NCBI GenBank assembly: GCA_017513085.1
Contig: JAFWDK010000019.1
Span: 224,146 to 288,145, forward strand
Direction: 5' to 3'
Origin: Clostridiales bacterium
Lineage (GTDB): Bacteria > Bacillota > Clostridia > Saccharofermentanales > Saccharofermentanaceae
DNA length: 64,000 nucleotides
In this document: positions 2,815 through 12,742 of the stretch, piece by piece
How the letters are laid out: each line of letters starts with the position of its first letter
Position numbering within the stretch: the first letter of the stretch is position 1
Program-made: the position numbers and the translations under genes
Notes under the pieces: model-generated
Databases searched by the model: none
The model's input: only the letters and a program-made list of their open reading frames with translations
Told to the model about the DNA's origin: nothing

Positions 2815-4188
2815 TCAGTTCGCGCTCCGCAGGAAGATCATGAGCATCACGACCGCAAATCCGAAAACAAAAGCCAGAGCGCCTTTGTCATTATCTTTCT
2901 TCACCGCGATCTGCGGGATCTCTTCGATCGTCGTGTAGATCAGGGCGCCGCCTGCTGTGGCCATGATATAAGGCAGGATCCGCGGAAACAAAACGACCAG
3001 AACGACCGTGATCACACCGAGAAGCGGGATCGGCGTGCCGGAAACGACACCCATAAAAAATGCTTTTCCCGTCTTTGTTCCCGCATCACGGATCGGAAGC
3101 GCGACGCAGAGCGCCTCGGGAATATTTTGCAGCGCGATCGCTATGGCCAGAACGATCGCGACCGAAGAAGATATCCATTCCGTCTTCATGAAATGCGCTG
3201 CATAGATCGCGCCGAGAGCGATCCCCTCCGGCGTATGGTGAATGATCTCCTTGAGCAGCACTTTGGTCTGCGAGTCCAGGTTGCTTTTGGGTCCTTCCGT
3301 AATATCTGAAAACGCATGTTTATGCGGCACGACGACATCCAGGAAGATCTGGAACAGCACACCGACGCAGAAGCAGACCGTGACCGGGATGATGCCATTT
3401 CTATTCTCCAGACTCAAACCTCCGATTGAAGGTTCGATCATGCCCCAGACGGCAATCGAAAACATAATACCGGAACTGCATCCGACCAGCATAGCGCGCA
3501 GCGTATCCGACAGTTTATTCTTGGCATAGATCACCGCGGAACCGAGAAGCGTTCCGATCAGCGGGATCAGCATACCGAACAGCGTATCGGCATCCGATAA
3601 TGTATGCGAACTGTCCAGGTACGTGATCAGTGTGCGGAATCCGATGAACAGCAGGATCGTTCCACCCATGATCTCCGAACCGGCGCGATACCGGCTGCCG
3701 AAAATATTACCGATCTTCACTCCGATCGTCGAAATGATGAACGTCACAATACCGATCACACCGACCGCAAACAGCACATTGACAAACCGACCGGCAGATA
3801 AAACTTCAACAGGGACCGCAACAAAAGTGATGCCGACAGCCAGCGCGTCGATACTGGTCGCGATGGCCATCATGAACATCGTCTTTACATCAAAACCCGG
3901 CTTGGCATCTTCATCCGGAGCAAGCGCCTCCTTGATCATGTTCCCACCGATCAGTGAAAGTAGCCCGAAAGCTACCCACGGCGCTACCATAGTGATGAAA
4001 CGTTCAAAAGCAGATCCGACGAGATAGCCGATCAACGGCATTATGGCCTGGAAAAATCCGAACCATATTCCACAAAGAAAAAACTCTTTCTTCGAGATCT
4101 TCTTCGACGCCAGTCCTTTGCATATCGATACGGCAAAAGCATCCATCGCAAGACCAACAGATAGAAGCAGCAGTTCAAATAATCCCAT
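2815..4188 (-). CDS. Fusion of MntP-type manganese efflux pump (N-terminal) and ZIP/ZupT-type metal transporter (C-terminal)
   Basis: MntP motifs GLAMDAFAVS and AIATSIDALAVG; ZIP-like motifs HHTPEGIALG, LQNIPEA and PHKH loop in one continuous ORF. Confidence 0.8.
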   Translation of the reverse strand: MGLFELLLLSVGLAMDAFAVSICKGLASKKISKKEFFLCGIWFGFFQAIMPLIGYLVGSAFERFITMVAPWVAFGLLSLIGGNMIKEALAPDEDAKPGFDVKTMFMMAIATSIDALAVGITFVAVPVEVLSAGRFVNVLFAVGVIGIVTFIISTIGVKIGNIFGSRYRAGSEIMGGTILLFIGFRTLITYLDSSHTLSDADTLFGMLIPLIGTLLGSAVIYAKNKLSDTLRAMLVGCSSGIMFSIAVWGMIEPSIGGLSLENRNGIIPVTVCFCVGVLFQIFLDVVVPHKHAFSDITEGPKSNLDSQTKVLLKEIIHHTPEGIALGAIYAAHFMKTEWISSSVAIVLAIAIALQNIPEALCVALPIRDAGTKTGKAFFMGVVSGTPIPLLGVITVVLVVLFPRILPYIMATAGGALIYTTIEEIPQIAVKKDNDKGALAFVFGFAVVMLMIFLRSAN

Positions 4189-4225: not shown

Positions 4226-5053
4226 TCAAAGTTGTTTTTCTTTACTGTCCAAAGTCTCATTCATACTGCCGGTCCGATAGCCCTGAAGATCCATCGTAAC
4301 ATAAGCAAAACCAAGTTCATGCAGCGTGGAACAGACCTTGTCGCGCACGCCCTCTTCAACCAGTCTGGGGAATTCTTGCGGCAACACTTCGATCCGGGCG
4401 ATATTCCCGTGGATGCGGACGCGGAACTGCTTGAAACCAAGGTCCAGGAGAAGTTGCTCGGCCTGATCGACCATTCTGAGTTTCTCTTCACTGATCGTCT
4501 CGCCGTAAACAAAACGCGACGACAGGCAGGCGAACGACGGCTTATCCCAAGTCGGAAGATCCAGTTCTTTTGAAAGCTGACGGATATCCTCCTTCGTCAG
4601 ACCGGCTTGCCGAAGCGGGCTTTTGACACCAAGTTCCGCCACCGCGATCAGCCCCGGCCGGTAATCGCCGTTATCGTCAAGATTGGATCCCTCCGCAACA
4701 TACTCAATTCCATTCGCCGCGGCCACGTCCAGGATCTTCGTAAAAAGCTCTTTCTTACAGATATAGCAGCGGTTCTTGGGGTTCTGGCGGAACCCGTCGA
4801 TCGCTAGTTCCTCAGATTCGATCACGACCTGCCTGATGCCTTCCTTTTCGCAGAATGCAGTTGCCTCTTGTAATTCTCGTTTGGGAAAAGAACAGGATTT
4901 AGCCGTAACGGCGATCACCTTATCCTTTAAGACATCTTTGGCGACCTTCAAAAGAAATGTGGAATCGACGCCGGAAGAGAATGCAACGGCTACACTTCCA
5001 AGCTCCTGAAGATACTGTTCCAGTTTCTGTTTTTTCTCATGTAATGCGTCCAT
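4226..5053 (-). CDS. larE: LarE family ATP-dependent sacrificial sulfur transferase (PP-loop)
   Basis: AFSSGVDS PP-loop, NRCYICK, DYRPG, KPSFACLSSR, RVRIHG, GYRTGSMN. Confidence 0.85.
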   Translation of the reverse strand: MDALHEKKQKLEQYLQELGSVAVAFSSGVDSTFLLKVAKDVLKDKVIAVTAKSCSFPKRELQEATAFCEKEGIRQVVIESEELAIDGFRQNPKNRCYICKKELFTKILDVAAANGIEYVAEGSNLDDNGDYRPGLIAVAELGVKSPLRQAGLTKEDIRQLSKELDLPTWDKPSFACLSSRFVYGETISEEKLRMVDQAEQLLLDLGFKQFRVRIHGNIARIEVLPQEFPRLVEEGVRDKVCSTLHELGFAYVTMDLQGYRTGSMNETLDSKEKQL

Positions 5054-5166
5054 ATGTACCTCTGTCTGTATTCCGATAGAGCGGAAAGAATCTTTTTCTT
5101 GATTGTACTATAGTACTCGATAACTTTCCTCGCTTCAATATCAACAGACATACAGACGTACCCGGA

Positions 5167-5679
5167 TCAGGCGATATATTTCACACCCAAAGAACGAAGT
5201 TCCTGACGCATCTTCTGTACCTTTTCTGCCGGAAATCTCCGTCCGATACTCTCCTCGAGCATAACGACGGACGCCCCCGTCTTCGCCGCGCCTTTTGCTG
5301 TGGCGCCGACACATCCGCACTCATCGATCCCGCAGATCGCCACTTCTTTATAGTTCTGTGCTTTCATGTACTCGCGGAAAGCCTTGGCCGTATAGGCGTC
5401 AGAACGACTCTTCTCAAAGCACAGATCCGACACAACATCCAGTTTGCTGTAGAGCTCTGCCCCTTCTGTTCCCCGGATCGAGAATCCGACTCCCCACATC
5501 AGTTTGGACAATACATGCTTAATGTATATGATGTCGTAGCCCTTCTCTTTATAATCGGCAATCGTCCGATTGATATGCCCGACCAGCGCATCACTGTCAT
5601 AAGTAAACATCGCCTTTCTTTTTTCCCAGAAATAGTCATTCTGTATATCGATTACCAGAAGTGCTCTCTTCTCTTGCAT
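5167..5679 (-). CDS. Isochorismatase-like cysteine hydrolase
   Basis: ALLVIDIQND, GTEGAEL, FEK and GIDECGCVGATA supply a D-K-C triad; start chosen at MQEKRALLV after an RBS. Confidence 0.85.
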   Translation of the reverse strand: MQEKRALLVIDIQNDYFWEKRKAMFTYDSDALVGHINRTIADYKEKGYDIIYIKHVLSKLMWGVGFSIRGTEGAELYSKLDVVSDLCFEKSRSDAYTAKAFREYMKAQNYKEVAICGIDECGCVGATAKGAAKTGASVVMLEESIGRRFPAEKVQKMRQELRSLGVKYIA

Positions 5680-5812
5680 ATATTTCTCTCCTTCTCCAAT
5701 CACTATGTTTCTCACCATTATTGAACGCGTTCAATTTATGATAACGCAGATTCTTCTTCTTTTCAATCAGAAAAAGAAATCCTGACAAAAAAATGCCGAT
5801 ATCATCAAAAAA

Positions 5813-5857
5813 GTTCCATATAGAACATTGACACCAATTAGTTCTATATGGTACCAT
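5813..5857 (+). promoter_or_regulatory. SigA promoter of the marR-like gene with two palindromic operators
   Basis: -35 TTGACA 5828-5833 and TGn-TACCAT -10 5852-5857. Imperfect palindromes GTTCCATATAGAAC 5813-5826 and GTTCTATATGGTAC 5841-5854. Confidence 0.6.
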
Positions 5858-5926
5858 CTTCCTGTAAAACGTTTTATGATTTGCGGCGGAAGGATCTGTC
5901 CCCGCCTCAACAAAAAGGAGAGCACC

Positions 5927-6370
5927 ATGGATACCCGGACGGGTTTTCTCATATCTCAGATCAAGCAGGTGCAGGCCCGCGTGTTTCAGAAGCTCCTGGT
6001 GGAAAGCGGAGTGGAAGAATTCAATGGTCCGCAGGGACATATCCTGTATGTTCTCTGGCAGGCAGACGGAGTTCCGATCGTAGAGCTTTCGAAGAAGACC
6101 GGGCTTGCGAAGAACACCCTGACTGCGATGCTTGGCCGTCTTGAAGACTCCGGTCTGATCACCAGAGAAGCCCATGCTACAGACAAGCGCCAGTCCTTGA
6201 TCGTGCTTACGAAGAAAGCACGTTCCTTGAAAGGCAAATACGATGAGGTATCCGAACGCATGAATGAGATCTTCTACCAGGGATTTACCGAGAAAGAAGC
6301 GCTCCGCATGGACAGTTATCTTGACCGGATCCTGGAGAATCTCGAGAAGTCCGAACAACAGAAGAAATGA
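5927..6370 (+). CDS. MarR family transcriptional regulator
   Basis: QGHILYVLW, ELSKKTGLAKNTLTAMLGRLEDSGLITR, DKRQSLIVLT; RBS AAGGAG before ATG 5927. Confidence 0.9.
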   Translation: MDTRTGFLISQIKQVQARVFQKLLVESGVEEFNGPQGHILYVLWQADGVPIVELSKKTGLAKNTLTAMLGRLEDSGLITREAHATDKRQSLIVLTKKARSLKGKYDEVSERMNEIFYQGFTEKEALRMDSYLDRILENLEKSEQQKK

Positions 6371-6387
6371 TCGAAGGAGAATTTAAA

Positions 6388-6990
6388 ATGTCTAAAAAAC
6401 TTGCCGAAAACGGAAATGATTTTTGCCCGCAATCACTGTTCCTTTACGGAACGAAAAACGAAGACGGAACGCCGCATTTCGGACTGTTCTGCTGGTTCAG
6501 TTATATCAGCACCCTGACGGAAAACGGTGAGGGTCTGGGCGTGATGGCCTGCATCGGCGAAGAAAAACTCACGAAAGATCTGATCCGCAAAAACGGCGTA
6601 TTCTCTGCCAACCTGGTTACAGAAGAACTGCTTCCGCTCGCCGACTATTACGGCAACATCAGTGGTCGTGAAAACCCGGACAAGATGCGTCATATGCCTA
6701 CAGTTGAGCAAGGTCTGAAACTGGATGTTCCGACGATTGCCGAGAGTCCGATCAGCATGGAACTGCGTGTCCAGAAAGAGATCCACTTGACCGAGGGCAG
6801 CGATGTATTCCTTTGCGAGATCGTAGCCGTTTCCATGAAGGAGGAACTCATGAATAAGCAGATCCCCTTCATCGACAGATATCTGTCGGTCATGCCGGTC
6901 CTCGCCGGCGGCGAACTACGCTATGTCACCGCAGACGGGAGAGACATGGGCCATTGGGGCGAACCCATGCAGGAACTCGCAGAAAAGTAA
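6388..6990 (+). CDS. Flavin reductase-like protein
   Basis: FCPQSLFLYGT, FSANLV, ADYYGNISGR, PTIAESPISMEL; RBS AAGGAG. Confidence 0.75.
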   Translation: MSKKLAENGNDFCPQSLFLYGTKNEDGTPHFGLFCWFSYISTLTENGEGLGVMACIGEEKLTKDLIRKNGVFSANLVTEELLPLADYYGNISGRENPDKMRHMPTVEQGLKLDVPTIAESPISMELRVQKEIHLTEGSDVFLCEIVAVSMKEELMNKQIPFIDRYLSVMPVLAGGELRYVTADGRDMGHWGEPMQELAEK

Positions 6991-7035
6991 ATCAGGAAGT
7001 GCTTGGTGGAGAAGCTCGGCATGTTGAGGTTTCTT

Positions 7036-7542
7036 CTATTTTTTCGTTTGCTCATTCTTCTTCCGGATTTTCTTAGTATAAGATCTGGCGTTGATAGTCA
7101 GCAATATTGAAAACACGATCGAGATCCATGCCGGGATCACGCAGTATCCGGGGCTGATCTGTCCGTCACTTTTCAGCACCAGGATCGCGGATCCGATCGT
7201 CACGCCGCAACAAACCATTTCTAATCCGAAAAATATAAGTGCCCGTATGATCGCCTGCTTCTTCGTTTTGTCTGTATAGTCCGCAATTAACAATAATGAT
7301 TCTTTTGTCTCTTTGTCCATTTTCTCACTTTTCCTTTCGCCATCGATAAGTTCGCGGATATCCACATCGTAATAATCCGCCAGTTCAACAAGGATGCTCA
7401 GATCCGGAAGTGTATTTCCGTTTTCCCAACGTGAAACACTTCGGGACGATACTCCGAACAGATCAGCAATCTCTTCTTGCGTCTTATCTTTCTCTTTTCT
7501 CAGACGCTTAAGAAACTCACCGATCTTTTTCTGGTCTATCAT
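7036..7542 (-). CDS. XRE/Cro-CI helix-turn-helix regulator with two C-terminal TM helices
   Basis: KIGEFLKRLRKEKDKTQEEIA...VSRWENGNTLPD; hydrophobic C-terminus; RBS AAAGGAGG. Confidence 0.9.
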   Translation of the reverse strand: MIDQKKIGEFLKRLRKEKDKTQEEIADLFGVSSRSVSRWENGNTLPDLSILVELADYYDVDIRELIDGERKSEKMDKETKESLLLIADYTDKTKKQAIIRALIFFGLEMVCCGVTIGSAILVLKSDGQISPGYCVIPAWISIVFSILLTINARSYTKKIRKKNEQTKK

Positions 7543-7898
7543 GCAGAAATCCTCCTTTCGGTTCTGATTATCGATCGACTGCCCTAAGAAAACCACGTCA
7601 CAAAGTGAGAAATGACGTTTTTCCTACCGGACAGATTTGTCTGGTCGCCTGTTTTCAGGCATTTCCGAGATATCCATCCCGGAACCGATTTTATGTCATT
7701 TTACAATAAGCCGCAAGCGGAAACAATTCCTTCCGACTCACGAAAAGAACTTTCCAAGATGAGGTCGCTTCCTCGTTCATCTCCCCGTTCAATCTGAATC
7801 TAAGGAAACCACAGCAGGCGCTCTCTTCTATTCTTTCGGGTTCGATGATGGTATAATAGTCAAAACAGTTCACCTTCAAGTTTAGGAGGATTACGAGA

Positions 7899-8249
7899 AT
7901 GGAAAATTTAAACTACCAGCCACCGGTAACAGTCAATGACCGGGCTGGCGAAAAGGTAATCGAAGCGAACTTCCGAATCGATGATATAAAAGCTCAGATC
8001 GCAGAACTAGAGATCAAGATTTCTGCTCTATACAATGTGATCGTCGAGCAAGGTATCGATCCTAAGCTTATCGAAAGGAAAGTTGAAGAACTGGTAACAA
8101 ACCGTCCTGAACGACCGCTCGTATCTGTCTTAACAAGATCGCAGATTTGTCCGGAATGCGGGAAGAAGGTCAAACCATCCTCCGTTGATCCATTGATGGG
8201 AACCTGCCTGTTCTGTGGGACCAAAGTGCCTTTTTACCCTACATTCTGA
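7899..8249 (+). CDS. Hypothetical protein, coiled coil plus C-terminal zinc ribbon
   Basis: CPECG...CLFCG; RBS AGGAGG; TG-TATAAT -10 just upstream. Confidence 0.75.
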   Translation: MENLNYQPPVTVNDRAGEKVIEANFRIDDIKAQIAELEIKISALYNVIVEQGIDPKLIERKVEELVTNRPERPLVSVLTRSQICPECGKKVKPSSVDPLMGTCLFCGTKVPFYPTF

Positions 8250-8280
8250 ACAGACGGCAAGCACAATAAACCAAGATCAC

Positions 8281-8306
8281 GAACGGCTTACATGCCGTTC
8301 TTTTTA
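8281..8306 (+). terminator. Intrinsic terminator
   Basis: GAACGGC-ttacat-GCCGTTC followed by a T-run. Confidence 0.65.
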
Positions 8307-8417
8307 TTTATCCGCTCAGTATAACTATCTCATTTTTTCACTATTCTGCCTTATAATGGAGCCAAAAGAACCAAGTCGGCGGGGAGATCCTGCATTCCCG
8401 CAGTTTTCGGCATCAAC

Positions 8418-9095
8418 TCACAGAAATATCCCCATCAGAACGAAAAGCGCAATAATGATCGCAAGATATACCAGCGCGAGTATTCGCTTGATGGTTTCTT
8501 TCTTCCTGTCTTTCCTCTGCCGGACCGGCGGAAGCGAGAAGATCCTCTTCCATTTCTCCCTTTTCGGATGCTCGACGGTATTGTCGATATAGGAACGGAA
8601 ATCGAAATTCGATCTGACCTCACTATCCGGGTACAAGTGTTTCTCCGCTGTACGGGAAAACCGGTCCTCCTGCGTCAGCTGTCTTAGATTCCGTGCAATA
8701 TCGCATCGGTCGGCAGACATACTCACAAGTGATTCCTGGACCCCAAAGTACTCCGCGATGTCCTCTGTGCCGCAGGACTTCTTCTCCGCGATGCAGACGA
8801 TAAACCAGATCTCCGGCAACTTATCCCCGACGAAAGGCGGTTTTTGCATATATTCCTCGATATATTCGTCCCTCGAGGAATATTTCTCCATTTCGGGAAA
8901 ACCATCCGCCCAGCTATACATCAGGCCATATCTTCGCGCCCGCAGGTCGCTTTCCGTATAGAACTCTTTGTCATGCTTGATATAAGCCCATTTTGCGATC
9001 CGAGGATGGTCGAGTGCAGCACGGATAAAGGCTTCCGTATCCTCGCCCTTATCGCCTTCTTTTATCGTGATATAATAACCGTGCTCTTTACTCAT
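8418..9095 (-). CDS. Rep_2 (HUH rolling-circle Rep)-like protein with degenerate catalytic motifs and a C-terminal TM anchor
   Basis: WAYIKHDKE, GDKLPEIWFIV, IAEYFGVQESLV, LRQLTQED, KHLYPDSEVRSNFDFR follow the motif order of Rep_2 proteins; hydrophobic tail. Confidence 0.6.
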   Translation of the reverse strand: MSKEHGYYITIKEGDKGEDTEAFIRAALDHPRIAKWAYIKHDKEFYTESDLRARRYGLMYSWADGFPEMEKYSSRDEYIEEYMQKPPFVGDKLPEIWFIVCIAEKKSCGTEDIAEYFGVQESLVSMSADRCDIARNLRQLTQEDRFSRTAEKHLYPDSEVRSNFDFRSYIDNTVEHPKREKWKRIFSLPPVRQRKDRKKETIKRILALVYLAIIIALFVLMGIFL

Positions 9096-9130
9096 ATTTC
9101 TCTTTTCCCCAAATCACGCTCAAGCGCGCG

Positions 9131-10015
9131 TCAAGGCTCGAACTTCGTTCCGCACTCGGTGCAGAATTTTGCTGTCTTCGAGGTTCGCAGCGCTCCGCAG
9201 GACAGACAGTATGAACGGTCTTCCGGCCTGACCGTCTGACCGGACTTCGCGGCGATTTCTTTGAGAAGGGCGAGCGTCCGCTCCGGATCGGTGAAGATCC
9301 GCTCATGTTCCTGGTCGAACCGGATGAATCCTTCCCACTCACCCACTTCTACATATGCTTCTTTAGGATCTTTGCAAAGCTCTCTCACTTGTTCCTTGAT
9401 CCAAGGAAGAATATCCGATGGTACGCTATAGCTGTTCTCACTATCCCCTTCACGGATCACCACACATGCGTTTTGGTTTGAAAAGTAGAAGGCACTCAAC
9501 ATGACATCCGGACGGATCGTCCCAAAGGCCGGATCCGGAACAGGAGCCGGTCCGGGATAAACCTGATGGTGGATCGAACTCAGTTCAAAATCTTCCGGCA
9601 ATTCCGGATTCGGGTAACAATAATTGATGCGATCTCTCTGGTTAAGCGGCTCCCCACATACGGCGCGGAGTTCTTCCAGCATCTGGTACAGGACTTCTTC
9701 GTCCATATCGTGATAATAGGTATCGACCTGCCCGTCTTCTCTTGTCTCGACGACCGCAGCCATCTCCTTTCCATTCAACGAAGGCTCGAGAGGAAAGAAT
9801 CCCCGATGCTTCTCCCCGCACTTACTGAGCACCTCTTCGACGAACTTTTCCGCCGCCTCCCGTGGCACAGCATAATCCGAAGCCTCATGCGTCAGGAGGT
9901 AGTTTCCGTCTTTTAAGCTGGTCACCCTGTAATCTGTATTTACAGGCGGTCCCCCGCAGATCGTTTGCTCCATAAAGTATTTCTGGAGATTTCTGTATGC
10001 GATATAAATATACAC
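9131..10015 (-). CDS. Hypothetical protein with C-terminal zinc ribbon (start uncertain)
   Basis: CLSCG...KFCTECGTK; 294-aa ORF. Confidence 0.65.
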   Translation of the reverse strand: MYIYIAYRNLQKYFMEQTICGGPPVNTDYRVTSLKDGNYLLTHEASDYAVPREAAEKFVEEVLSKCGEKHRGFFPLEPSLNGKEMAAVVETREDGQVDTYYHDMDEEVLYQMLEELRAVCGEPLNQRDRINYCYPNPELPEDFELSSIHHQVYPGPAPVPDPAFGTIRPDVMLSAFYFSNQNACVVIREGDSENSYSVPSDILPWIKEQVRELCKDPKEAYVEVGEWEGFIRFDQEHERIFTDPERTLALLKEIAAKSGQTVRPEDRSYCLSCGALRTSKTAKFCTECGTKFEP

Positions 10016-10120
10016 CCGAATGACCTATCCTTCTTCCCAATCTAAAACTAGATATATCACAGGATGGTCCGCAAATCAAATCCGCAGCCTGCGTAAGTGT
10101 TTTTGCTGAAGGCGGAGTGT

Positions 10121-11029
10121 TCACTCCTTTATGCCACGGATCTTAACTGCAGTAAGAAAATGCTTCTGTAAGAACGGATAGAGAATGATCATGGGAAGTA
10201 TGGCCAGGATCATGACAGCCGACGCGACTCCGGCACGGCTGGGCGCAGCGGCCACAGTCGAATCTACATAACCGTTACTTGCGTTAACTGCCGAGGTCTC
10301 CACTTTAAACAATTCAAACTGAATGGTTGAAAGCTCTTGGTTCATCCGATTGAAAAGCAACGTGTCAAACCAGGAACCCCAATGATTTGCGGCAGTAAAG
10401 AGTGCAACAACGGCATAGATCGCTCTGCACTGAGGACAGACAATACTCCAGAAGATCCGCAAATACCCCGCGCCATCAAGTTGTGCAGATTCCTCCAGGG
10501 AATCCGGTATCGTCTCCATATATGACCGCATGAGCAATACGTGAAGCACACATACCATTCCCGGGATAATATATACCCAGAAGCTCTGTATCAGATCGAG
10601 CTTTCTATATAGGACCAAAGTGGGGACCATTCCGGCTGATATGAACATCGTAAAAACCCAAAACCGGGAAAGCATTGTCCGAAACACAAACTTTTTCCGG
10701 CTGAGGATAAAGGCAAGGACCGCGCAGGCGAGCACGGAAGTCAGCGTACCGAGAACCGTTCTCTCGACACTAACGAGGAATGCCTTCCGGTAGTTAGTAT
10801 TCTTAAAAAGCACCAGTTCCCAGTTTTTAAGAGTAGGAGAACGCGGAAATAATCTCAGCGCAAAGCTTTTATCTGCTACATCATAAACGCTGCTAAAGGA
10901 CAACGGAATGAGGCGAAGTATCGGGTACAGGGCAACGATTGAAGAAACAATAAAGACCGTCCATGTAAATATTCTAAAACACCGCTCGGAAGCGGGCACC
11001 GGTTTCTTGTATAAATCTCTTTCTTCCAT
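10121..11029 (-). CDS. Carbohydrate ABC transporter permease (LplC/MalG-like)
   Basis: EAA loop IPDSLEESAQLDGAG, SAGMVPT, LYPFLQKHF...GIKE. Confidence 0.9.
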   Translation of the reverse strand: MEERDLYKKPVPASERCFRIFTWTVFIVSSIVALYPILRLIPLSFSSVYDVADKSFALRLFPRSPTLKNWELVLFKNTNYRKAFLVSVERTVLGTLTSVLACAVLAFILSRKKFVFRTMLSRFWVFTMFISAGMVPTLVLYRKLDLIQSFWVYIIPGMVCVLHVLLMRSYMETIPDSLEESAQLDGAGYLRIFWSIVCPQCRAIYAVVALFTAANHWGSWFDTLLFNRMNQELSTIQFELFKVETSAVNASNGYVDSTVAAAPSRAGVASAVMILAILPMIILYPFLQKHFLTAVKIRGIKE

Positions 11030-11120
11030 GATTTCTTCCCCCTAGAAGTACCCATTCTGAATACTAGACACTTATCCAAGAGTTTTGTTACACACAGATT
11101 CAAAACAAAAGGATATGTGA

Positions 11121-11486
11121 TCAGCGTATCACATATCCTTCTTTGGCTAACACTTCTAAAGCCCGTCCAAAGTTTTCTTCTTTCACAAGAATATAATCCG
11201 TATTGTACGTCGATACAGCGAATATCCCTATCTTGTTTTCAGCAAGGATTCCGGAAATCTTCGAGAGTATACCGATCAACGAAAAATCCAGCACTCCCTG
11301 GATCCGAAAACCTCGCCAACCGTCATCTCTCTCAATAGTGTTTTCCGGAGCCTCTTCCGTTTTACATACTAAAGATAACTCCTCATCTGTTTTACCGATA
11401 AAATAAAACTCTGAAGACAGGTCCACAGCAGACACATCTTCAACTTTACATACAGTCAGATTATGTTCTAGTTTTTTTAGCTCCAT
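11121..11486 (-). CDS. ACT domain-containing protein
   Basis: KTDEELSLVC, GWRGFRIQGVLDFSLIGILS, FAVSTYNTDYILVK; RBS AAGGAG. Confidence 0.85.
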   Translation of the reverse strand: MELKKLEHNLTVCKVEDVSAVDLSSEFYFIGKTDEELSLVCKTEEAPENTIERDDGWRGFRIQGVLDFSLIGILSKISGILAENKIGIFAVSTYNTDYILVKEENFGRALEVLAKEGYVIR

Positions 11487-11645
11487 GGTTAACTCCTTTG
11501 GAAGACCGGCTAAGATGCCGATCTGTCTTTTTCCTTGTTTCATTATATTCCAATTTGAACAAAGATATTCAACGCATCGGAGTAACGGTTGCATTAATGT
11601 GCTGAATAACCACTCTAAGTGAGACGATGACTGCGATCAAATATG

Positions 11646-11855
11646 TCATTTCTTCAGTGCATTTTTCTTTTCGAAAGAGAGCATCATCCGGTGCATGCCG
11701 ATCAGGACGACTGCCAGAATAATGGTTGCAACAAAAAAGATAAGAGACAGTTTTAGCATTTCAAGATTGAAGGCTATGGCGGCGACTGCCAAGCAAACAG
11801 CAAAAACTCCGAATATGATCCTAAGTAAAACTTCTCCTGTTGAATTTTCCATCAT
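11646..11855 (-). CDS. Small two-TM membrane protein
   Basis: Two hydrophobic stretches; RBS GGAGG. Confidence 0.6.
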   Translation of the reverse strand: MMENSTGEVLLRIIFGVFAVCLAVAAIAFNLEMLKLSLIFFVATIILAVVLIGMHRMMLSFEKKNALKK

Positions 11856-11986
11856 CTTTCCTCCGGTTCGATCATCATTTTATGATTCTATCTTATCCTT
11901 GATGCATTAAGTCATCGTCAATCAAACATAAAGAAAGCGTTAAGATTGAAAACTGTTCGCCGAACGTCAAAGGTCGCTCGAGCGGC

Positions 11987-12742
11987 TCAAAGACCGGCCA
12001 GATCGTTGATGACTTCGCCGGCGATGATCAGGCCGACTACGGATGGAACAAACGCGGTGGAGCCGGGAATAGCTCTTCGATCTGTACATTTTCTCTCCGC
12101 GCCCGGTGGGCAGATACAATGCTGTCTGCAGCTGATGGACATATCCTCCAACGGTCGGACCGGTGCTTCCTTGGAATACACGACTTTCAGGGAGTCGATG
12201 CCTCTTTTTTTGCACTCACGCCGCATGACTTTGGCCAGCGGGCATATAGATGTCTCGTAAATATCCGCCACCTCAAAAAGCGCGGCATGAAGTTTGTTTC
12301 CTGCGCCCATGGAGGAGATGACCGGGACGCCGGCTTCCTTTGCTTTTTCAATAATGGCCAGTTTTCCGGTTACGGTGTCGATCGCATCGACTACATAATC
12401 GTACTCTCTGAAATCGAACTGATCCTGAGTCTCCGGCAGAAAGAATGTGCGAAATGCTCTGACGTTGCATTCCGGGTTGATATCGTGCACCCGTTCTTCA
12501 GCCACGTCAACTTTATATTTCCCGACGGTCTTCCTCGTGGCAATGATCTGGCGGTTGATATTGGTCAGGCAGACCTTGTCATCGTCGATAAGGTCCAGGG
12601 CGCCGATCCCGCTTCGGGCCAGCGCCTCCACGACATAGCCGCCCACGCCCCCGATTCCGAAAACGGCAACACGGGAAGACGCGAACTTTTCCATCGCTTC
12701 CGGTCCATATAACAGTTGTGTTCTGGAAAACTGATTCAGCAT
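11987..12742 (-). CDS. tcdA: tRNA threonylcarbamoyladenosine dehydratase (ThiF family)
   Basis: FSRT, GIGGVG, TNINRQ, YVVDAID, SSMGAGNK, PLAKVMR, VVYSKE. Confidence 0.85.
   Translation of the reverse strand: MLNQFSRTQLLYGPEAMEKFASSRVAVFGIGGVGGYVVEALARSGIGALDLIDDDKVCLTNINRQIIATRKTVGKYKVDVAEERVHDINPECNVRAFRTFFLPETQDQFDFREYDYVVDAIDTVTGKLAIIEKAKEAGVPVISSMGAGNKLHAALFEVADIYETSICPLAKVMRRECKKRGIDSLKVVYSKEAPVRPLEDMSISCRQHCICPPGAERKCTDRRAIPGSTAFVPSVVGLIIAGEVINDLAGL

Follow-up and report, generated by a model that had tools for sequence, protein, structure and literature searches.

The 64,000-nucleotide stretch of DNA analysed here, called the window below, covers positions 224,146 to 288,145 of contig JAFWDK010000019.1 in the assembly GCA_017513085.1 of a Clostridiales bacterium from the rumen or gut. 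On its minus strand lies a gene for a protein of 225 residues that is a homologue of the nucleases initiating rolling-circle replication (Rep proteins), and in which the residues for DNA cutting have been lost. The original prediction, made from the letters of the window, had described this protein as a catalytically dead Rep homologue with a membrane anchor, and the strings on which that description was built (WAYIKHDKE, GDKLPEIWFIV, IAEYFGVQESLV, LRQLTQE, and KHLYPDSEVRSNFDFR) are all present in the translation of the open reading frame (ORF) 8418-9095. The translation, the Shine-Dalgarno-like site, and the basic stretch were read directly from the window sequence. The gene consists of the following parts:

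8418-9095, minus strand: coding sequence of 225 amino acids with an ATG start and the stop codon at 8418-8420, an inactivated homologue of the Rep origin-binding domain (OBD) with a predicted C-terminal tail anchor
8571-9095, minus strand: RepB-like OBD with the HUH-nuclease fold, residues 1-175, by VIA-align and Foldseek comparison with RepB
8964-8975, minus strand: HDKE, residues 41-44, counterpart of the HDKD motif of active relatives in the alignment
8811-8962, minus strand: insert between strand 2 and strand 3, residues 45-95, with conserved residues specific to the family, mostly gaps in active relatives
8802-8810, minus strand: I-W-F, residues 96-98, by alignment the one-time HUH motif, which is H-W-H in active relatives
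8739-8772, minus strand: CGTEDIAEYFGV, residues 108-119, counterpart of the recognition helix alpha-2 of RepB (RepB V66-L77) by alignment and in the AlphaFold2 (AF2) model
8667-8681, minus strand: QLTQE, residues 139-143, by alignment the one-time YLxH(E) motif, with Q139 in place of the nicking tyrosine and Q142 in place of the histidine
8595-8642, minus strand: KHLYPDSEVRSNFDFR, residues 152-167, a motif common to active Reps, with Y155 in all 24 filled rows of the family alignment
8538-8567, minus strand: short amphipathic basic helix after the OBD, residues 177-186, present in most family members with or without a following transmembrane (TM) segment
8484-8522, minus strand: RQRKDRKKETIKR, residues 192-204 (R192-R204), basic stretch before the TM helix, read from the translation
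8421-8483, minus strand: ILALVYLAIIIALFVLMGIFL, residues 205-225 (I205-L225), predicted C-terminal TM tail anchor of 21 hydrophobic residues, by hydropathy and AF2
9100-9110, minus strand: purine-rich Shine-Dalgarno-like sequence GGGGAAAAGAG, its last base 4 nt before the ATG

The relationship to Rep proteins emerges from profile and structure comparisons. Scans of the protein against curated libraries gave no significant family: the best Pfam match was to an unrelated family (E 0.033), NCBIfam returned no family, and the best match in PHROGs had an E value of 0.39. A single-sequence phmmer search of PDB sequences returned noise only. Against 1.84 billion representative proteins phmmer found 85 proteins at E<=1e-3, 18 of them at E<=1e-10, and 36 of the matches were scanned with Pfam. 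The seven close relatives contain no Pfam family, and P0017 is an unrelated repetitive protein. Among the 28 more distant matches, 24 contain Rep_OBD (PF01719) and 19 the superfamily 3 (SF3) 'RNA_helicase' domain (PF00910), with three having the helicase only and one no domain. The proteins combining Rep_OBD with the SF3 helicase are the nearest sequence relatives (E 8e-16 to 1e-4). A joint alignment of the family and its active relatives (A2; 52 rows, 27 active and 25 inactive) gives a profile that matches RepB of pMV158 (3dkx) at E 4.6e-4 and that aligns KKAHYHVLY, YLYLTHE, and KKHVYD of RepB in register with the HUH, YLxH, and KxxY motifs. The AF2 model built on A2 has a mean predicted local distance difference test score (pLDDT) of 92.8 and a predicted template modelling score (pTM) of 0.77. 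In a Foldseek search with this model RepB accounts for all of the top ten PDB chains (E 5.7e-5 to 3.3e-3, probability 1.00), and VIA-align superposes residues 1-174 of the model on residues 3-134 of RepB with Z scores of 11.1-12.6 and a root mean square deviation of 2.8-3.7 Å over 108-121 residues. The next matches in VIA-align are the nuclease domain of a circovirus Rep (Z 8.3) and the DNA-binding domains of papillomavirus E1 (Z 5.9). In addition, the nine structural neighbour clusters listed for the ESM Atlas model of the exact sequence all include PF01719 members (38-97%), with template modelling scores of 0.43-0.56. The homology to RepB-type HUH endonucleases that had been claimed, and the fold comparison with RepB structures proposed as its check, are thus borne out by three independent lines (phmmer, the joint profile, and the structure comparisons by Foldseek, VIA-align, and ESM Atlas neighbours). 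Because both the fold and the sequence homology are significant, the likeness is not due to chance, and the protein is a true homologue of the Rep_OBD nucleases that does not pass the curated Pfam model.

Judged by sequence, the nearest active relatives are the Reps with Rep_OBD and SF3 helicase of the YLxH supergroup. As outlined in Kazlauskas et al. 2019 (PMC6668415), this supergroup comprises the pE194/pMV158-like and the pCRESS4-8 Reps, and the present protein descends from it. Since its nearest active relatives carry the helicase, this domain has been lost too; the 225 residues give no PF00910 match, and past residue 175 the AF2 model has helices only. RepB of pMV158 (PDB 3dkx, 3dky, 8amt, 8amu) has the same fold, the same motif order, the KxxY..NFD region, and the counterpart of the recognition helix. 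In contrast to RepB, the present protein has the HUH histidines and the nicking tyrosine replaced, has about 50 residues inserted between strands 2 and 3, and is without the hexamerisation domain RepB_C, having an amphipathic basic helix and the predicted tail anchor instead. Furthermore, its gene is chromosomal and has no double-strand origin. The Reps with Rep_OBD and SF3 helicase from small or integrated bacterial plasmids are closer in sequence and have WAYIxHDK[DE], GDK, xHxYxDxEVxSNFDFR, and the [LM]xxE register of the YLTHE motif in common with it, and some of them even have a long insert at the same place. The present protein differs from them in being only 225 residues long without a helicase, in having lost the catalytic residues, in lying on a separate branch, and in not being encoded on a plasmid. 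An unrooted tree built for the OBD region by a quick search with IQ-TREE (52 rows) places the 25 inactive rows on one side of a branch with a Shimodaira-Hasegawa-like approximate likelihood ratio (SH-aLRT) support of 100. A single origin of the inactive state is compatible with this tree, the direction of the change being read from the residue states because the tree is unrooted.

The loss of the catalytic residues is seen when the family is set against its active relatives. In a MAFFT alignment the H-W-H of the active relatives pairs with I96-W97-F98, and the tyrosine and the histidine of CVQYLTHE pair with Q139 and Q142, while the active WAYIxHDKD reads WAYIKHDKE and GKHxYxDxEVxSNFDFR is retained. 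Among the active relatives in A2 (27 rows), the full residue set is carried by 24, both HUH histidines by 26, and the tyrosine by 26. In contrast, none of the 25 aligned rows of the family (A3) has the first HUH histidine, four have the second one (P0004, P0021, L017, L018), and four have the tyrosine (L009-L012), the second histidine and the tyrosine never occurring together. Other positions are well kept. For example, W97 is invariant, H41 is found in 17 of the 25 rows, and position 44 is glutamate in 20 and aspartate in five. The insert 45-95 contains W62 (24/25), G65 (22/25), F66 (21/25), Y72 (24/25), S74 (24/25), P86 (22/25), and P87 (21/25). In the recognition-helix counterpart, E111 aligns with D69 of RepB, and I113 and F117 are near-invariant in the active and inactive sets. 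According to the structural work on RepB (PMC9943647), its Mn2+ is held by a histidine triad and the active site is lined by Tyr99, His102, and Lys52. Because the RepB-type metal and active-site positions are lost, metal-dependent nicking by the present protein is very unlikely, in agreement with the original prediction, which had noted the missing metal ligands and nicking tyrosine. With its defining catalytic features absent, the protein should, by its residues, not be filed as a Rep initiator.

The gene is rare. One copy is present in the genome of origin, which is 99.4% complete at 3.06 Mb, and of 141 further genomes in this taxonomic family 17 have the gene, namely two of 23 genomes of the genus, 15 of 100 of a second genus, and none of 18 from six others. 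It was not found in 158 genomes of three other families of the order. The genomes are of the grade of metagenome-assembled genomes (MAGs), and absences mean 'not found'. A word-indexed search gave only four clusters, with 99, 88, 58, and 60% identity, and the relatives are unnamed or called 'hypothetical protein' in their sources. A wider search of contigs with a five-row alignment (A1) gave ten loci in MAGs of rumen and gut origin, a number of them already counted among the 18 genome loci. The loci L046-L050 represent a further subfamily of 197 residues, four being labelled Lachnospiraceae and one Clostridiales. The ORFs covering the OBD are intact at all 18 genome loci and at all ten further, partly duplicate loci. 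Ratios of nonsynonymous to synonymous substitutions (dN/dS, Nei-Gojobori method, NG86) were calculated for pairs drawn from homologous loci outside the lineage of the present gene, of whose closest relatives P0001 and P0002 only the protein sequences are available. Among the pairs with dS<=2, the ratio is 0.09-0.29 in 11 of 12 (for example 0.10-0.13 among L009, L010, and L012, 0.24 for L002/L003, and 0.09 for L005/L006) and 0.46 in the twelfth, L017/L018. It is 0.04-0.17 in all ten pairs of L046-L050, and over all listed pairs 0.04-0.29 in 21 of 22. By these ratios the gene is under purifying selection and not a decaying fragment, in line with the intact reading frame noted in the original prediction. 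It had also been proposed to look for homologues sharing the loss of the HUH and tyrosine residues together with the TM tail under such selection. The loss and the selection are found, but the tail belongs to only some of the members.

The basic stretch and the 21-residue TM helix noted in the original prediction are seen at R192-R204 and I205-L225. The Kyte-Doolittle mean over 19 residues peaks at 3.07 (from residue 204), AF2 predicts one helix over residues 195-224, and the net charge of the tail is +9. With a single TM segment at the extreme C terminus, no N-terminal signal peptide, and a basic flank, the protein fits, as predicted from hydropathy and AF2, the criteria for a tail anchor. 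By the positive-inside rule a basic stretch in front of a TM segment predicts a cytoplasmic N-terminal domain. The anchor is thus predicted for the present protein, but it is not a trait of the family: a single C-terminal TM segment is found at three of the 18 genome loci (the present gene and two homologues of the same genus) and a longer tail with several TM segments at three, while at 12 the protein stops shortly behind the OBD.

About 100 residues long, the multi-TM tail forms a conserved domain that reads as four TM helices in the alignment and belongs to no Pfam family. It is common to P0008, P0011, P0013, P0021, L016 (1177-2055), and L018 (1135-2100). A search with this region gave only four further proteins at E<=0.01, which have 224-286 residues and no Pfam domains, and one of which (P0023) also matches the OBD in phmmer. 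All ESM Atlas feature matches for the 4-TM domain are below 0.9, and in these searches the domain was not found outside the Rep-like family. In nearly all members the OBD is followed by a short amphipathic helix, such as WERFKDMIR or FWKRWADLFWK, and the tail carries a positive net charge, from +2 to +12; in 17 of 27 sequences no 11-residue window of the OBD reaches the hydrophobic moment of the best window of the tail. Because members have a single TM segment, the 4-TM domain, or a basic amphipathic tail, three devices could place the OBD at the membrane, which for the forms without TM segments is only a suggestion. In one homologue (L004/L045, G035:C61:66505-67161) a TGA ends the ORF at 193-195 residues, and the tblastn match to the present protein runs past this TGA into a weakly hydrophobic stretch. 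This homologue may represent a recent truncation of the tail anchor. When the sequence behind the stop codons of the tail-less members was read through, G035 was the only case with such a stretch, so the tail-less forms are not simply recent truncations of an anchor of this type.

The two ORFs next to the gene are:

9131-10015, minus strand: upstream ORF of 294 amino acids on the same strand, separated from the Rep-like gene by 35 nt, with a sub-threshold C-terminal zinc-ribbon match (E 0.012-0.037)
7899-8249, plus strand: flanking ORF with a sub-threshold match to DZR (E 5.9e-4; 20.4 bits, cut-off 27.3)

The zinc-ribbon proteins that had been reported on both flanks are therefore present as matches, but the matches stay below threshold on both sides. 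In the region 202-20796, all 18 larger ORFs are chromosomal genes of an ordinary kind, coding among others for a solute-binding protein, an MntP-ZIP fusion, an isochorismatase, MarR, a flavin reductase, ThiF, a GGDEF-EAL response regulator, an aldo-keto reductase, and TetR. The absence of a plasmid backbone stands: no replication, transfer, or phage genes, plasmid backbone, integrase, relaxase, or Rep were found in window 1-20800, and no PF01719 protein in the whole genome. The GC content of the gene is 0.491, compared to 0.472 for the window. The 294-residue ORF may be co-transcribed with the Rep-like gene here but is not a conserved partner of the family; neither it nor the other neighbours in the window are found within 1.5 kb of either side of the 17 other loci, and an all-against-all clustering of the ORFs within 7 kb of either side of 11 other loci gave no neighbour family shared beyond close relatives. 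The 35-nt gap contains no sigma-70-like site, and no terminator was called on the minus strand after the gene. Assembled contigs from X18 and X19 (two runs only guessed to be RNA) and X20 (a metatranscriptome) cover parts of the gene (8333-8467, 8643-8847, and 8909-9103; 8473-8680 and 8862-9046; 8364-8566). They are strandless and may stem from DNA carry-over, and the coverage is at most a weak hint of transcription.

The other loci of the family mostly have ordinary neighbours as well, such as glycoside hydrolases, two-component systems, and GNAT proteins. Neighbours typical for mobile elements are found at a few of them: L025 has FtsK/SpoIIIE immediately upstream, L019 and L022 have HerA/TrwB-like ATPases at a distance of about 2.5 kb, and ParE/antitoxin and AbiEii adjoin L026 and L047, respectively. 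All five loci L046-L050 have syntenic upstream genes, for a PtsI-like protein, a phosphoribosyltransferase, and LysR, and varying downstream genes. In the window, the Rep-like gene lies within a 7-kb mosaic (about 5055-11987) between an NAD-synthase-like gene (4226-5053) and ThiF (11987-12742), which are adjacent in several genomes of the same genus (e.g. G134, G138, G124, G139, G126, G133, G128, and G141). Pieces of the mosaic match scattered places in those genomes, and the relative order of the NAD-synthase-like gene and ThiF is swapped here. Three further ORFs on the minus strand deserve mention. In the 457-residue ORF at 2815-4188 one protein unites an MntP domain for manganese efflux (residues 31-187) and a ZIP metal-transporter domain (residues 315-450). 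The 186-residue protein encoded at 7036-7596 has an XRE-type helix-turn-helix (HTH_3, E 4.5e-16) and a hydrophobic C-terminal half; it is encoded some 0.8 kb downstream of the Rep-like gene, is a second candidate for a DNA-binding protein at the membrane, and does not recur at the other loci. A polytopic membrane protein of 302 residues is encoded at 10121-11029, with no Pfam match at E<=1e-5 and no obvious transporter partner genes, and parts of this ORF match several places in genomes of the same genus.

The 99.4%-complete genome of the present gene yielded no PF01719 protein and no active Rep with a helicase. A search of 142 same-family genomes with the active relative P0016 returned only the inactive genes and one weak match, an ORF of 401 residues (G090:C23:32394-32855) that matches residues 87-235 of P0016 at E 4.1e-6; G090 is the only genome of the family with a different Rep-like ORF. 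In tblastn P0016 matches only plasmids of 3-5 kb from Leptotrichia and phytoplasmas (21 records). It has no match in 50,697 phage records, and a link to phages was dismissed on this result. Because active Reps are scarce or absent in the same-family genomes, a target replicon is not in evidence.

Our preferred reading, which we hold tentatively and at somewhat less than an even chance, is that of a non-catalytic descendant of a YLxH rolling-circle initiator that binds DNA, is held at the membrane, and likely blocks the sites of related replicons. Such a protein could not nick DNA. Binding to double-stranded DNA would remain possible by way of the recognition helix (residues 108-119), which is retained, and the neighbouring strand. 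In RepB, as described in PMC9943647, the OBD contacts the double-stranded 'bind locus' with strand beta-4 and the recognition helix alpha-2, at a distance from the active site. Because this mode of binding does not involve the active site and the equivalent helix is retained, DNA binding by the present protein is plausible by analogy. The tail anchor with its preceding basic stretch would hold the OBD at the cytoplasmic face of the membrane. The most likely role would then be to occupy or sequester the DNA sites of related rolling-circle replicons without initiation, which amounts to interference or exclusion. This role is favoured because of the patchy distribution of the family, its variable settings, its plasmid ancestry, and the lack of an effector. 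Truncated or inactive Reps, such as N-terminal fragments of geminivirus Rep, are trans-dominant inhibitors of replication. They serve as a conceptual model only, in which the origin is occupied by an OBD that has neither catalytic activity nor a helicase, and they are engineered or viral products, whereas no target replicon is known for the present protein.

Several points weigh against this reading. The hidden Markov model of Pfam Rep_OBD itself gives no match to the protein. The region of the recognition helix belongs to the more variable regions of the family proteins, with a mean fraction of the commonest residue of 0.44, and the best-conserved residues specific to the family are located in the insert 45-95 and may point to a partner other than DNA, either a protein or a ligand. 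DNA binding, membrane insertion, and the lack of nicking are all inferred. The anchor is missing at 12 of the 18 genome loci and in L046-L050, so that tethering cannot be the core of the family function; the anchor is lineage-specific. No neighbour is conserved across the family, and no iterons, inverted repeats, or repeat family stand out in 7500-10400. PADLOC (PADLOC-DB 2.0) gave no match, with zero families, for the present protein or for L009, and for P0008 only one to PDC-M48A (E 0.0097). Finally, the 142 same-family genomes contain no active Rep of the YLxH kind besides the weak ORF in G090.

The next best reading and main rival is that of a membrane-tethered regulator of host genes, in which the exapted OBD would sit on chromosomal operators, the anchor or amphipathic tail would couple it to a signal from the envelope, and foreign replicons would play no role. 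This would fit the stable chromosomal place with syntenic housekeeping genes upstream in L046-L050, the strong purifying selection, the lack of an active Rep partner in the genomes, and the conserved residues of the insert, which could form a surface for a signal or a partner. However, a gene present in only 17 of 141 other genomes of the family and two of 23 in the genus is patchily distributed for a host regulator, no target or partner gene is conserved nearby, and repeated operator-like sites were not seen. We therefore consider such a regulator unlikely, while ranking it directly after interference with replicons.

Rather unlikely in our view is a more specific form of interference, in which the whole family would serve rumen Clostridia as a device for exclusion of, or immunity to, rolling-circle replicons that consists of one gene. 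The origin DNA of incoming YLxH-type Rep plasmids or single-stranded DNA elements would be recognised by the nuclease-dead OBD and pinned unprocessed at the inner face of the membrane by the tail anchor, the 4-TM domain, or the amphipathic basic helix, and initiation would be blocked.

The gene could also belong to a mobile element, such as an integrated plasmid or an integrative and conjugative element, and be its cargo or its regulator, for example a trans-dominant copy-number or incompatibility factor, instead of a host gene. The FtsK/SpoIIIE, HerA/TrwB-like, ParE/antitoxin, and AbiEii neighbours described above would agree with this, as would the different contexts of the loci and the 7-kb mosaic lying between two genes that are adjacent in several other genomes of the genus. 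Since window 1-20800 contains no integrase, relaxase, or Rep, the GC content is not deviant, and five loci (L046-L050) share a housekeeping context, we regard this as improbable. It is very improbable that the protein is still a nuclease or transesterase that works through other residues (H41, D42, E44, H153, Y155). H41, D42, and E44 are indeed kept, Y155 is found in every filled row of the family, and four members have even kept the tyrosine of the YLxH motif. However, these residues are not substitutes because the active relatives conserve them equally alongside the HUH motif and the tyrosine, and in the family the first HUH histidine has gone from all 25 rows and the second histidine is never combined with the tyrosine in one member. 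The view that the gene is what remains of an integrated plasmid Rep in decay and that its hydrophobic tail is fortuitous, in favour of which the lost catalytic residues and helicase and the TGA before the tail in G035 could be counted, is close to refuted by the intact OBD reading frames, the low dN/dS ratios, the conserved motifs specific to the family, and a tail anchor kept at 58-59% identity (P0003, L002, L003).

The closest functional analogy to the preferred reading, a DNA-binding protein derived from an initiator, is probably provided by the inactivated HUH OBDs of small double-stranded DNA viruses. According to PMC6668415 and PMC9943647, in papillomaviruses and polyomaviruses HUH domains without the signature motifs act as origin-binding domains. 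The OBDs of papillomavirus E1 and polyomavirus large T are thus a precedent for the fold without the catalytic motifs in the role of a sequence-specific binder of double-stranded DNA, and the model of the present protein matches E1 in structure. These viral domains are part of fusions with an SF3 helicase and have kept a role in initiating replication, whereas the present protein is stand-alone, bacterial, chromosomal, and predicted to carry a membrane anchor, and its sequence is much nearer to the active bacterial Reps. In the full-text literature, subscription papers and supplements being outside its scope, we found no family of stand-alone chromosomal bacterial Rep OBDs with a dead nuclease, and none that is membrane-anchored. 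Inactivated HUH domains as DNA binders are a textbook example from the papillomaviruses and polyomaviruses. Because the DNA-cutting residues and the helicase are lost, a predicted membrane anchor is carried, and the gene is kept by selection, it looks like a plasmid protein that has been put to a new, non-cutting use. If it binds DNA, it would be a clear bacterial case of a plasmid initiator turned into a host or anti-plasmid factor and a natural scaffold of a nicking-dead OBD for studying how such domains read DNA. If it interferes with rolling-circle replicons, gut anaerobes would possess a new type of plasmid exclusion.

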